Positions 6,106 through 28,044 of a stretch of 64,000 bases of DNA are shown here, in pieces. Below the pieces are notes generated by a model. That model was given only the letters and a program-made list of their open reading frames with translations, was not told where the DNA came from and ran no database searches. The stretch is from Dictyostelium discoideum. Its lineage: Eukaryota. The position numbers and the translations under genes were made by a program. Every line of letters starts with the position of its first letter. The first letter of the stretch is position 1. Location of the stretch: assembly GCA_000004695.1 (NCBI GenBank), contig CM000154.2:4352001-4416000 (forward strand). The letters run 5' to 3'.

Positions 6106-8111
6106 ATGGATAATAATAATAATCCAAATAATAATAATCCAAATAATAATAATAATAATAATAATAATGATTATAATAAATGTCATTATCATCCGACTAA
6201 TGAAATAAATTTAATTTGTTTAGAAGCAGAGTGTAAATTAATGCCATGTTGTGTAGCTTGTATGTCAATTAGTGGGAAACATCATAGACATAGTTTTGAT
6301 TTAGTTAATAATTGTATTTCAAAAATTATTGATAATTTTAAAAAAATATATCCAAATATTTCAAAAAGAATTAATGATTATAAAGAATTATCAGAAAAAT
6401 CAAATTCGATTCATTCAAATTCTAAATTAGATTTTTATAAAAATATTGCTCTTAATGATAAAGTTTTTGCAAATTTAATTAATACTTTAAGTTCAATTCA
6501 AAGAAATATAAAAAATGAATTACAAACAAATCAAGATAAAAATTATGAACTAAATTCAAATGAATCTTTACTAATAACTAATAATAGTCAAATACTTTCA
6601 AATATTTTAAATAATGTCTCAATTGATCATTTGGATGATTCAATTAATAATGATAATAATGATAATATTAATTTAGTTAAATATTATCAACAATCTTTAG
6701 AAGTTTTAAATGATGAAATCATTGAAATTGATTATCAAAATTCTTTACTAACTTTCGATCTTCAACTAATTGAAGAATTAAAAGAAAATTTTAAAAAAAT
6801 TTATTCAATTAATCAATCAGATAATATTAATATTGAAGATGAAGAAGAAGAAGAGGATGAAAAATTTAAGATTGGAATTGATGAAAATGGCAATGGGTTT
6901 GTAAAGAGTATGTATGGTGTGTGTAATTTTAAAGAGAAGGGGGTGGATGATGATGATTATTAATATGAATTTTTTTTTATTTTTTATTATTTTAAAATTT
7001 AGATGAAAATAAAAAGTATTATATTTATTCAGAGAATAGTGAACAAGAAGATAAAGATTCAGTTGCATTTGGAGAAGATTGTGGTAATTTATTAAACATT
7101 AGATCAAATAGAGTATTGAAGAATGTAATGTTGTTAGATGGATTTAAAGAGAGTTTAGGAGTTGGTGTATTACCAGATAGTATTGAATATTTGGAGATAT
7201 GTGATATTAAAACACCTTTGGTGGTTGGATCAATACCATCAAGTGTAAGAACATTGGTATTAAATGATGGATTTAGTCAACCATTAGAACCTGGTATTAT
7301 ACCATCAAGTGTAAAAAGTTTAGATTTACATAATATTAAAAATCGATTAAATGTTGGTTCAATTCCAAGATCAGTTGAAAATTTGGTTTTAAATAATGGA
7401 TTTAATCAACCACTTTTAGTTGATGTAGTATCGTTAATATCAGATGGTGTAAAATTTTTAACATTACATAAAATTAAAAGCCAATTAAAGGTTGGCTCAA
7501 TTCCAAAAACAGTAAAGAAATTAAGTATTGGTGATGGATTTTCACAATATTTGGAAAGTGGAATTGTTCCAAATGGTGTAATTACATTATATATTAATAA
7601 TATTAAACAACAGTTACAAATTGGATCAATTCCAACTTCTGTAAAATTTGCAACTTTTGGTGAAGGATTTAGTCAATTGCTTTCACCTGGCATTATTCCA
7701 AAGGGTGTAATGATGTTGTTTTTCTATAACATTAAATGTCCATTGGTTATTGGTTCAATTCCAATTTCAGTTACATGGCTAACTTTTTATAATGGTTTCA
7801 ATCACTCAATATCACCTGGTATAATCAGTAAAGGTGTGGAAAGATTATTATTACATGATATTAAACAACCATTAGAAATGGGTTCAATACCAACAACAGT
7901 AACTCACATCGTACTTGAAGATGGATTCAAACAAGCACTAACACCAGGAATCATTCCAAATTCAATAAAAGAATTAACTTTAAAAAATGTAAATCTTCAA
8001 TTAGTTGAAGGTTCAATACCAAGACAAATTCCAAGAATTATTTTAAATAATTTTAATGAATCATTAGAAAATTGTAATTTAGATCAATCCGTAGAAATAA
8101 AAATAGAGTAG
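6106..8111 (+). CDS. Copy 1 of the B-box-like zinc finger / coiled-coil / FNIP-repeat gene. Two exons: 6106..6907 and 7003..8111. An alternative acceptor would start exon 2 at 7033.
   Basis: Exon 1 encodes [37 protein letters not shown] followed by a heptad-rich region. The donor is a|GTATGT at 6908, in phase 1. The acceptor is TTTAG at 7001-7002. Exon 2 encodes 13 or more FNIP repeats (GSIP..V..L.L.DGF[SN]Q.L.PGIIP). The frame is open across the splice. Confidence 0.65.
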
Positions 8112-8446
8112 GGTTTATTATTATTATTATTATTATTATTATTATTATTATTATTATTATTATGATTTAATAAAAATTAAATTTTAAAAAAAAAAAAAAA
8201 AAAAATTCCTTTTTAAAAATAAAATAAATAAAATTATTAAATCGATGTGCAATTTTTTTTTTTTTTTTTTTTTTTAAAATTTTAAGTTTATTAAATCATG
8301 ATTGTTTTTTTTTTTAACCACCCACACCACAAACCATCAACAAAAACACTATTTCCATTTTTTTTTTTTTTTAATTTTTTTTTTTTAATCAAATTTTTTT
8401 TTTTTTTTTTTTTTTTTTTTAATCAATAACAAATAATATATTAAAA

Positions 8447-9181
8447 ATGAATAAAGATAATAACAATAACAAATGTTCATTTCATCCAAATAAAAATTTA
8501 GAACTTTTATGTTTTAATTGTAAATTTATTCCATGTTGTATGCACTGTATTTCTCAACATGGTGAACACCATGGTCATAAAACAAATTGTATAGATTCAA
8601 TTGAAACATCAAATATTCTCAAAATGATGAATTTATTTAAAAATGATATTATTCCAAAATTAAAAGAAATAGTTGAAAATGATAAACAAATAATCAATAA
8701 ATCTGAAAATATTTATAATGAAATTAATCAACAATATGAAAATAATAAAATTTTAGTAACAAACGAATTTAAAAAGTTTCATACATTAATTCAAATTAAT
8801 CAATTAGATATTGAAAATCAATTAAGAACAACATTTGATGAAAATACAATAATATATACTATTATTAATTCATCAATCAATAATAATAATAATTATAATA
8901 TTAATGATGATAATAATTATGGTATTAATATAGAATCAATAGGTAATAAATTAGATAATCTCAATGATACTCACTTACAATATTGTAATGAAAATCAAAT
9001 TTATAACTGGCTTGAGAATCAAGATATTTATCAATTATTTAAAAAATATCAACAATCAACCTTAATAGTTAATAATAAAAATAATATTGAAAATTTAAAT
9101 AAATTAAAAGAATATAATAATCAATCAATAGTATTTAAAATAATGAATGAAATTAAAAATAATTTAAAATTAATTTATTAA
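8447..9181 (+). pseudogene. Truncated 5' part of a B-box/FNIP paralog (copy 2a). It has the B-box and coiled coil only and ends prematurely after ...EYNNQSIVF.
   Basis: It is homologous to exon 1 of copies 4-6 ([51 protein letters not shown]...). It diverges and stops where intact copies continue for about 60 more codons. There is no intron and no FNIP exon. Transposon-like insert DNA follows. Confidence 0.6.
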
Positions 9182-25665: not shown

Positions 25666-26103
25666 TAATAATAATAAATATGTCTATATCCATTCTCAAA
25701 TATTAAAATTTACAAAGAATTAAAAAAAAGAAAAAGGAAAGGAAGAAGGAGAAAATGATGAGTAGTAGAATATTTGTAAATAATAAAGGATCAAAAACAA
25801 AAAATAAATTCCATCAATTTTATCCTTAATTATTATTATATTTTTAAATTTTTTTTTTTTTTTTTTATTGAAATTATTTTTTAAATATAATCAATTTTAT
25901 ATTTTTTTTTAATTAAAATAAAAGCTAGATATTTTTTTTTAATTAAAATAAAAGCTAGATATTTTTTTTTTTTTTTTTTTTTAAATTTTTTTTTTTTTTT
26001 TTTTTTTTTTCACTCCAAATCAAAAAGTTTTGTTTAATTTTATTTTTAGTTTTTCAGATAAAAAAAAAAAAAACATAAATACTTTAATAATTCTTTTTTT
26101 AAT

Positions 26104-28044
26104 ATGATTGAAAATAAAATAGAACAGAACTGTGCACTCCACACAAATAAAAATTTAGAATTTTTATGTTTAGATTGTAAATTAATACCATGTTGTACAT
26201 TATGTATTTCTAGAGGAGGTGAACATCATCGTCATGGAATTGATTCATTAGAATCAATACAAACATCTTCAATTCTTTCAATGATGAATAGTTTTAAAGA
26301 TGTTTATCCAAAAGTAATTGAAAGAATAGAAAATGATCAACAGATATTAAAAGATTCTGATGAAATTTTCAATGAAATTCAATCACAATATAATAAAAAT
26401 AAAATCACACTAAACCAAGAATTTAAAAAAATTCATAACATACTTTCAATACTTGAATTGGATATTGAAAGACAATTAACTACAGATTTCGAAATAAATA
26501 CATTAATAAATACAACTATAACCTCTTCAATAAATAATGATATTGACAATTATAATAAAAATAAAAATAATAATTCAATCACAGATATATTAAATATTTC
26601 TATAAAAAATATACAACAATATAATGATGATGATTACTATAAAATAGATTCAAATTCAATCGAATTAATAAAACAATACCAACAATCATTACTATTATTA
26701 AATAATAACAATAATATTGATAATTTAAATAAATTAAAAGAATATAATAATCAAACCATTAAATTCGATAACCAAATAATTAATGATATTAGAAGTAATT
26801 TAAAATTAATCTATTCTTTTGAAAATAATAATAATAATAATAATAATAATAATAATAATAATAATAATAATAATAATAATAATAATAATAATAATAATAA
26901 TAATAATAATAAAAAAACTGAAAAATTAAATATTGAAATTGATGAAAATAATTTTAAATTTATAAAGAGTATGTTGTATAAATAAATAAATAGATAAATA
27001 TATATATATAAATAAATAAATAAATATTAACAATATTGATATATTATTATAAAAATAGAACAAAATAAAAAATATTATATTTATTCAGAGAATAATGAAT
27101 TTCCAAAAAATGAAGAAAGAATTGCATTTGGAGAAGGTTGTGGTAGTTTATTAAAAGTTAATTGGAATAAGAATTTAAAGAATGTAATGTTATTAGATGG
27201 ATTTGAAGAAAGTTTAGAACCAGGTATATTACCAGATGGTATTGTACATTTAGAGATATTTGATATTAAAACAGAATTAGCAGTTGGATCAATACCATCA
27301 ACAGTTACAAGTTTAACATTTAATGATGGATTTAATCAATCAATTGAAGTTGGTATTATTCCATCAAGTGTTATTTATTTAGATTTACATGATATTAAAC
27401 AACCATTAAAGATTGGTTCAATCCCACAATCAGTACAAGATTTGAAACTTTGCAATGGATTCTCTCAACCATTAGAACCAGGTATTATTACAAATAAAAT
27501 TAAAACATTAAGTATTCATGAAATTAAAACTCAATTACAAATAGGATCAATTCCAAATAGCGTCACTCATATGGTATTTTACGATGGCTTTAACCAATTA
27601 CTTTCAGCAGGTATTATACCAGAAGGTGTTTCATGGTTATTCTTTTTTAATATAAAAATCCCATTAGTTGTTGGTTCAATTCCTCAATCAATTTATTATT
27701 TAGTTTTCAGTGATGGTTTCAATCAAACAATATCACCAGGTATAATTACTAATGGTGTGGAAATTTTATGTTTACGTGATATTAAACAACCATTAGAAGT
27801 AAATTCAATACCAAAATCTGTAACCAATCTACTTATTGATAGTGGTTTCCAACAACCATTAACACCAGGAATCATTCCAAATTCAATAAAAGAATTAGCA
27901 TTAGGAAATATAAAAACTCAATTAGTTGAAGGATCAATTCCAAAGAAAATTCAAAAAATTATTTTAGATAAAAATTTCAACCAATCCTTAGAAATTTGTG
28001 ATTTAGATAAGAGTGTAGAAATAAGAACAAATTATTTAAAGTAA
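26104..28044 (+). CDS. B-box/FNIP paralog (copy 8), apparently intact. Two exons: 26104..26968 and 27059..28044 (alternative acceptor gives 27089).
   Basis: Exon 1 is about 97% identical in nucleotide sequence to exon 1 of copy 7, apart from the Asn tract. The donor a|GTATGT is at 26969. The acceptor AAAAATAG is at 27056-27058. The FNIP exon resembles that of copy 1 rather than copy 7. Confidence 0.65.

Follow-up and report, generated by a model that had tools for sequence, protein, structure and literature searches.

The dictyostelids carry a large family of proteins that combine a B-box zinc finger with FNIP repeats, with 241 members described in Dictyostelium discoideum, 381 in Acytostelium subglobosum, 206 in Polysphondylium pallidum and 55 in D. 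fasciculatum (OG5_126643; PMC4334915). We analysed a window of 64,000 nucleotides (nt) of D. discoideum chromosome 5, whose positions are used for all unit coordinates below, and detected a head-to-tail cluster of eight related same-strand units at positions 6106-28044, four intact and four broken. It is a local cluster of the published family, with the same domains in the same order and in the same taxon, and its composition is ordinary for the genome; the published survey gives counts only, and arrays, pseudogenes, mosaics and rates are not described there (PMC4334915). We consider it likely that the locus is a tandem array of paralogous two-exon B-box/helix/FNIP genes encoding non-catalytic adaptors, one of which is probably the cheater gene chtB.

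Among the described relatives, AreA (DDB_G0279871) shares the B-box zinc finger and the FNIP repeats with the array units, but has an extra DUF4559 domain and a different genome location; it binds Atg101, its loss raises autophagic flux, and its matches to TRIM proteins by HHpred, for the B-box only, were already noted by the authors (PMC4554924). The FNIP-repeat gene chtB (DDB_G0290617) lies on chromosome 5 and has two exons separated by one short intron. Its expression is seen from 0 h onwards and is higher at 4-24 h, and its knockout is a facultative cheater in chimeric development with no detected cost (PMC3559258). FNIP repeats are a structurally defined subclass of leucine-rich repeats (LRR) (PMC9525666) and have been treated as predicted substrate-receptor domains in Skp1 interactors/F-box proteins (PMC9485057). 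The FGxxFN (FNIP) proteins CroV588 and CroV539 (PDB 6nyr, 7zal; PMC9525666) belong to the same repeat family as the array by sequence and fold, with 21-22-residue turns carrying F..GFN and IP motifs. They consist of repeats only, and Crov588 is a closed ring, whereas the array genes are predicted to encode an open solenoid with N- and C-terminal caps, in which two half-repeat types (DGFNQ-type and IKxPL..GSIP-type) alternate with a 43-residue period. The metazoan TRIM/RBCC (RING, B-box, coiled-coil) proteins have the B-box2 ligand pattern and the long helix directly after the B-box in common with the array units. Unlike them, the units are without a RING, PRY/SPRY, NHL or any further C-terminal domain of TRIM proteins and end in an LRR-type solenoid, and here the helix is predicted and the dimer putative.

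The tblastn search of the window with both halves of U8 found family sequence only within 6106-28044 and in one inverted copy, U9 (Table 1). The initial annotation had proposed at least seven same-strand units 2.3-5 kb apart, four intact and four decaying, and a diverged inverted copy. All of this was confirmed: there are eight units with a start-to-start spacing of 2.3-4.6 kb, U1, U6, U7 and U8 are intact, U2-U5 are broken, and the inverted copy is intact by its splice model and annotation length. U1, U6, U7, U8 and U9 have clean two-exon models with a single 77-95 nt intron, a GTATGT/GTAAGT donor and an AG acceptor. The model lengths of U1, U7, U8 and U9 are equal to those of the ACTFIT annotation of a second, independent D. 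discoideum assembly (GCA_054883475.1), and the U1 splice junction is also used by the AX4 protein DDB_G0290679. U1 is the most divergent of the same-strand units. Poly-asparagine tracts occur at the same two places of exon 1 in U6, U7 and U8 (19290-19540, 23830-24030, 24290-24380 and 26820-26920) with very unequal lengths, for instance about 65 asparagines in U7 vs about 2 in U8 at the first site, and the size differences among otherwise similar copies are mostly due to the length of these tracts.

Table 1. Array units, their remnants, and AX4 gene models with their accessions, in window positions
Feature	Positions	Strand	Description	Accessions
U1	6106-8111	+	intact, 636 amino acids (aa); exon 1 6106-6907, intron 6908-7002, exon 2 7003-8111	
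U2 5' part	8447-9181	+	exon 1 (B-box and helices), 244-aa open reading frame (ORF); premature stop at homology break	
U2 insert	9182-11130	.	inserted or rearranged segment of about 1.95 kb splitting U2	
U2 3' remnant	11131-11933	+	exon 1 end, intron and first FNIP repeat (11131-11525); C-terminal cap and stop (about 11840-11933)	
U3	12281-12979	+	5'-truncated fragment; last ~5 double FNIP repeats and C-terminal cap, three reading frames (tblastn)	
U4	13656-15557	+	pseudogene; B-box frameshift near 13784, frame change 14578-14709	
U5	16520-18357	+	pseudogene; internal deletion in helical region leading to stop at 16816	
U6	18850-21203	+	intact, 757 aa from the given ATG; exon 1 18850-19951, intron 19952-20031, exon 2 20032-21203	
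Inverted 3'-end remnant	21583-21751	-	last codons of a unit and downstream flank, 380 nt past U6	
U7	23423-25665	+	intact mosaic, 721 aa; exon 1 23423-24446, intron 24447-24523, exon 2 24524-25665	
U8	26104-28044	+	intact, 616 aa; exon 1 26104-26968, intron 26969-27058, exon 2 27059-28044	
U9	37816-39535	-	intact diverged inverted copy, 546 aa; exon 1 39535-38620, intron 38619-38541, exon 2 38540-37816	
DDB_G0290605	4438-5592		exact match to window ORF	EAL62163; XP_635686
DDB_G0290679	6106-9181 (U1+U2)		815-aa model	EAL62200; XP_635687
DDB_G0290609	13656-14347 (U4 exon 1)		model spanning the U4 frameshift	EAL62165; XP_635689
DDB_G0290623	35215-37650		exact match to window ORF; ribonuclease Z	EAL62172; XP_635699

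The window has a G+C content of about 20%, and two of its ORFs match AX4 genes exactly (Table 1); exact matches were also obtained to DDB_G0290679 and DDB_G0290609. AX4 models in the window carry the UniProt name 'B box-type domain-containing protein'. The independent assembly GCA_054883475.1 (loci L001 and L002) is 99.6-99.7% identical to window positions 1-15630 and 25180-47670; all differences are single-nucleotide polymorphisms or homopolymer indels, and none is within the array coding sequence. The coding sequences of U1-U4 and U7-U9, the broken ones included, are identical in both assemblies; U6 is outside both loci compared. The initial annotation had raised the concern that the copies could be an assembly artefact of a single locus. 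We give this a practically negligible probability: the units differ from each other at 2-50% of nucleotides, each has its own lesions, and the second assembly reproduces U1-U4 and U7-U9, differing only outside their coding sequence.

Exon 2 is predicted to form an FNIP/FGxxFN-type LRR solenoid with a conserved scaffold and a hypervariable beta-strand surface. Pfam FNIP (PF05725, LRR clan) matched every exon-2 ORF tested at 200-222 bits (U1, 200; U6, 211.6), with 7-10 stretches of the 44-residue model per ORF, in agreement with the FNIP assignment of the initial annotation. The sequence profile detected Crov588 (E=1e-117) and Crov539 (6e-19) among PDB sequences. The AlphaFold models were built from U8; that of exon 2 has a mean predicted local distance difference test (pLDDT) of 95 and a predicted template modelling score of 0.91, with a short strand each 21-22 residues, about 14 turns and N- and C-terminal caps. 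The Foldseek search with this model returned CroV588 (6e-12), CroV539 and then the Toll-like receptor TLR2 and other LRR ectodomains. The repeat consensus is xLxxIKxPLxxGSIPxSVxxLxFxDGFNQxLxPGIIPxGVxxL, and the solenoid length ranges over the intact genes from about 9 turns, in the shorter U9, to about 16. The high-entropy positions of the repeats flank the LxL/LxF strand, and this strand-flanking surface is the ligand-binding face of LRR proteins generally.

The eight zinc ligands of the B-box in exon 1 are invariant in six copies (C10, H13, C22, C25, C30/31, C34, H41, H44). The copies other than U1 follow C-x2-H-x8-C-x2-C-x4-CC-x2-C-x6-H-x2-H and fit the B-box type 2 pattern (C-x2-H-x7-C-x2-[CD]-x4-C-x2-C-x3-6-H-x2-8-H); the cluster previously noted is B-box-like as claimed, with the correction that its C-x4-C spacing is restricted to U1 and the remaining copies have C-x2-C. 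According to Pfam zf-B_box (cut-off 24.1 bits), U6-U9 score at or above the cut-off with 24.1-25.3 bits (U6, 25.3; U9, 24.1), and U1 and U2 score below it. The profile comparison with PDB sequences detected the TRIM5 B-box/coiled-coil structure 4tn3 (168 positions, E=6e-5), followed by the B-boxes of TRIM2, KAP1/TRIM28, MID1/2 and MuRF1. The AlphaFold model for exon 1 of U8 consists of a B-box with a pLDDT above 90, a continuous helix at residues 54-154, four shorter helices and disordered asparagine tracts. Foldseek with this N-terminal model found KAP1 RBCC (prob 0.96), MID2, MuRF1 B2 (TMt 0.74) and TRIM5. In six of six copies the 98 residues past the B-box have a hydrophobic periodicity peak at 3.55-3.60, which shows an amphipathic helix and is compatible with a coiled coil without proving one; Pfam TRIM_CC had no match in the array units.

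The N-terminal profile built from the six window copies had 112 matches at E<0.001 among 1.84 billion representative proteins. Among the 98 that were Pfam-scanned, 85 had zf-B_box, 27 had FNIP, and about 14 had RING, in some cases together with NHL or TRIM_CC. The retrieval of RING-bearing TRIM proteins by this profile shows a true relationship, and on these sequence comparisons the module is homologous to the TRIM B-box and helix module. Together with the Pfam, PDB profile and Foldseek results, this bears out the RING-less architecture of B-box, long helix and FNIP repeats. The homology to TRIM proteins and the role of FNIP repeats as predicted substrate receptors in F-box proteins might suggest that the proteins are ubiquitin E3 ligases of the TRIM type, in which substrates would be bound by the FNIP domain. 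We find this very improbable. Pfam detected no RING or U-box in the ORFs of the units, exon 1 matching zf-B_box alone; the B-box starts 8-35 residues past the initiator methionine; and the upstream spacers of several units are only 336-490 nt, leaving no room for a RING exon.

The broken units have distinct lesions. U2 is a single unit that is interrupted by a foreign or rearranged stretch of about 1.95 kb and has lost most of its repeats. Its 5' part has an exact protein record (KAM9948263.1) and is colinear with U4 at 13618-14386, and the homology to U4, U5 and U6 breaks at the U2 stop. According to blastn, the gap between the two parts of U2 is 1974 nt vs 55 nt in U4, and most of its FNIP repeats are deleted (blastn and alignment of unit ends). 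The initial annotation had this copy as truncated; it is broken, but resumes in two pieces beyond the insertion. An 80-nt inverted repeat (9149-9228 and 10392-10471, 81% complementary) has its right arm in the 1.95-kb segment, and its left arm spans the last ~33 nt of the U2 ORF. The overlap of the left arm with the end of U2 coding sequence suggests a local inverted duplication, not a transposon terminus. The segment has ORFs with no Pfam match and has no second copy in the window or the related loci. We dropped a transposon origin for the segment on these grounds: no Pfam match, no other copy, and an apparent terminal inverted repeat that overlaps U2 coding sequence. The interpretation of U2 and U3 as one split unit was also dropped, because the separate C-terminal cap belongs to U2.

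U3, which has short ORFs at 12269-12496 and 12609-12803, is confirmed as the single fragment proposed earlier; a further inverted 3'-end fragment had been missed. This remnant is 83.5% identical to 25801-25627 in reverse orientation. Its flank sequence recurs 3' of units of D. cf. discoideum (locus L010, 19285-19457) and in a second D. discoideum cluster of the family (L009; GCA_054859385.1, contig JBTAPF010000012.1, 4281647-4302974). The latter lies about 200 kb away on a chromosome-5-sized contig; its units run in both orientations, and one copy, of 378 aa, has an internal deletion. In addition to the lesions of Table 1, about 49 aa are deleted at the start of the FNIP exon of U4, and U5 has another frame change and repeat deletion near 17671-17707. 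Two reference gene models look artefactual by comparison with these units: the AX4 model DDB_G0290679 appears to be a chimera, fusing intact U1 to the broken U2 exon 1 via an invented intron, and DDB_G0290609 bridges the U4 frameshift by an artificial intron, with the loss of half of the B-box.

Duplication of whole units makes the array expand and contract, and its members swap segments and die by frameshift, deletion and insertion (U2-U5). U4, U5 and U6, the last having the other two as its nearest relatives, are mutually 85-93% identical in nucleotides and form a young subgroup, of which two of three are dead. Conserved flanks were copied with the units: 12990-13355 matches 15683-16042 (82% over 382 nt), 15596-15709 matches 25694-25799 (83%), and 13472-13655 matches 18647-18849 (73%). 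The claim of whole-unit tandem duplication therefore holds. The conserved spacers cited in its favour hold in part: the flanks are conserved at the BLAST level among subsets of units, but the quoted short motifs are of low complexity or unique. Tandem paralogs with pseudogenes, as expected from birth-and-death evolution, are present as four intact and four broken same-strand units and two stray pieces, and the proposed coexistence of intact copies and pseudogenes is supported by the tblastn frames and blastn. Tandem clusters with pseudogenes also occur among vertebrate TRIM genes.

U7 is a mosaic of U8 and U6. In sliding windows, the identity of U7 to U8 is 91-98% over exon 1, the intron and the first repeats (start codon to about +1400-1500; ~23388-24954) and 63-78% further downstream. 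Its identity to U6 is 71-80% in exon 1 but 87-90% over the FNIP exon (~24615-25623). These opposite patterns show that U7 arose by unequal crossing-over or gene conversion between neighbours. Most unit pairs are 65-90% identical, yet U7 shares a 1.5-kb tract of 91-98% with U8, so that exchange between members also occurs.

The loci of two sister species were compared over 10 kb per side. In D. cf. discoideum, at least four same-strand units come after the DDB_G0290605 ortholog, which has 98% identity over aligned codons, and in D. dimigraforme four same-strand units end beside the ortholog of the 720-aa gene 3' of U8. The position of the array at the matching place in both shows that it predates these species. 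The sister-species arrays differ from the window in unit lengths and lesions, where frameshifts could be sequencing errors of those assemblies. The best-matching cross-species units are 50-60% identical in protein, vs 95-98% over aligned codons for the flanking genes.

Substitution rates were estimated as Nei-Gojobori dN/dS (omega). The two flanking genes have an omega of 0.09, and the array paralogs and cross-species pairs 0.5-0.9, i.e., 5-10 times higher. Within the repeats, omega is 0.34-0.52 at scaffold positions (0.40-0.44 in the closest pairs) and 0.56-2.0 at the strand-flanking variable positions (0.86-2.0 in the closest pairs). The initial annotation had proposed that the repeat domain changes fast while the B-box and coiled coil are conserved, and had considered uniform selection as the opposite outcome. 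Selection is uneven across the gene, though not in the proposed pattern, since in most paralog pairs the divergence of exon 1 equals or exceeds that of the FNIP exon. When U1 is compared with U6-U8, the proportion of nonsynonymous differences (pN) is 0.40-0.42 for exon 1 against 0.22-0.26 for exon 2; for U6-U8 it is 0.236 and 0.232. A conserved exon 1 was found in the U7-U8 pair only, owing to the recent shared or converted tract. The conserved parts are the eight zinc ligands and the repeat scaffold; variation is found in the helical region and, within the repeats, at the beta-strand surface positions.

These rates could also mean that the array is mostly evolutionary debris, with perhaps a few functional members and relaxed constraint after redundant duplication instead of selection for diversity. 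Half of the eight same-strand units are dead, omega is elevated over whole genes with the helical region included, a U1-like unit of D. cf. discoideum appears frameshifted, and the chtB knockout has no detectable laboratory fitness cost. We regard this explanation as possible but rather doubtful. In five copies the long frames are open, the splice sites canonical and the eight zinc ligands all present; in most pairs the scaffold has an omega well under that of the variable positions; the fold of exon 2 is modelled with high confidence; the array is kept at the same place in three species; and chtB is expressed and has a phenotype.

The variable repeat face potentially points in the other direction, to a diversifying recognition locus whose products would act as receptors of molecules from pathogens or from non-self (social partners), similar to vertebrate TRIM clusters or LRR immune receptors, with a positively selected repeat face. 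The hypervariable positions flank the strand as in ligand-binding LRR proteins, variable-position omega exceeds that of the scaffold, whole-gene omega exceeds that of the flanking genes, copies turn over and recombine, TLR ectodomains rank next after the CroV proteins in Foldseek, and the knockout of chtB, probably an array member, alters the outcome of chimeric development. The self/non-self or pathogen-sensing role that the initial annotation had raised as speculation stays putative; for a role in social competition, the likely presence of chtB in the array is indirect support. However, omega is above 1 in one pair only and not significantly, with the site class picked from the same data, and we consider diversifying selection on the repeat face suggestive. 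No signal peptide or transmembrane segment is evident in the proteins, so any sensing would be cytosolic. The known allorecognition system of D. discoideum is tgrB1/tgrC1; the description of chtB is that of a cheater gene and not of a gene for recognition; and the 241 genome-wide members fit a general adaptor toolkit equally well. Such a recognition locus seems unlikely. The more specific version, a cytosolic receptor locus of dimeric RING-less TRIM-like scaffolds with hypervariable LRR faces, acting in social conflict (chtB) or in the sensing of intracellular bacteria and coupled to autophagy like AreA, is in our view quite unlikely. If true, this amoebozoan locus would have given rise to innate recognition of the TRIM/LRR style independently of animals and plants.

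We suggest that chtB is probably one of U6, U7 and U8, placed by accession order and not by sequence. The chtB gene is similar to U6-U8 in its FNIP repeats, two exons, one short intron and chromosome 5 location; the chtB paper has no mention of a B-box or of neighbouring paralogs and gives no primers (PMC3559258). In the annotated genes of the window, XP numbers track position and DDB_G numbers run with EAL numbers (Table 1). This order puts DDB_G0290617 between U4 and the ribonuclease Z gene. The FNIP genes there are limited to U5-U8, among which U6, U7 and U8 are the only ones with two exons. U9 was excluded as chtB, since it lies beyond DDB_G0290623. The mapping of the chtB insertion site (chr5:4377789) to GATC does not discriminate, each unit having several GATC in GSIP codons. 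The exact look-up of 17 spliced or exon-only models of U6-U9 matched no protein record, and full-text literature searches for the neighbouring gene IDs found nothing. We also observed that the GSIP codons (GGA TCA ATT CC) create GATC in most repeats, giving 4-8 sites per unit (114 in the window); for an AT-rich genome, the family is unusually rich in insertion sites for DpnII/REMI (restriction enzyme-mediated integration).

Each intact gene encodes in order a RING-less B-box2, an amphipathic helix of about 100 residues, several shorter helices, asparagine-rich tracts and the FNIP solenoid. In the preferred adaptor reading, the proteins would be non-catalytic adaptors, probably dimeric via the helix. 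The repeat face may bind a protein partner, and, as in AreA and the RING-less TRIM proteins, the B-box/helix end could self-associate and dock onto regulatory complexes. AreA, which binds Atg101 and restrains autophagy, is the one relative with biochemical work behind it and the model for this mechanism.

Several points weigh against this reading. The putative adaptor mechanism is borrowed from a single distant paralog, AreA, with its DUF4559, and from general LRR/TRIM knowledge. The zf-B_box match is marginal, under the cut-off for U1 (15.7 bits) and for U2 (21.1 bits). The high omega could reflect relaxed constraint instead of diversifying selection; Nei-Gojobori is crude in a genome of 20% GC, and the proteins compared are also those that defined the variable class. 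The accession order on which the chtB placement rests is broken by DDB_G0290679.

Other genes were detected in the window. Two adjacent paralogous ORFs (315 and 187 aa) on the minus strand at 40473-42048 have a common cysteine-rich segment, CEKxKPEVFQLxPAxxxGGEVxLxGYFY, and weak TIG/EGF-laminin similarity, and are a small tandem duplication unrelated to the array. The minus-strand gene at 42537-45523 is UBE2O-like, with the ubiquitin-conjugating core and the UBE2O SH3-B and SH3-C domains (970 aa on the independent assembly). The 811-aa ORF at 58371-60806, also on the minus strand, has an asparagine-rich N-terminal half and ribonuclease-inhibitor-type LRR (Pfam LRR_6, 144 bits), a class different from FNIP. 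The tRNA scan of the window found none.

The reference annotation already includes the genes of the array, both the family and its expansion have been published, and phenotypes are known for two relatives. Our analysis adds that chtB is probably part of a tandem array that recombines and whose paralogs evolve fast and have a hypervariable repeat face. This placement bears on redundancy, on the lack of laboratory cost on chtB loss and on the evolution of 'social genes', and the local detail is possibly useful for Dictyostelium social-evolution work.

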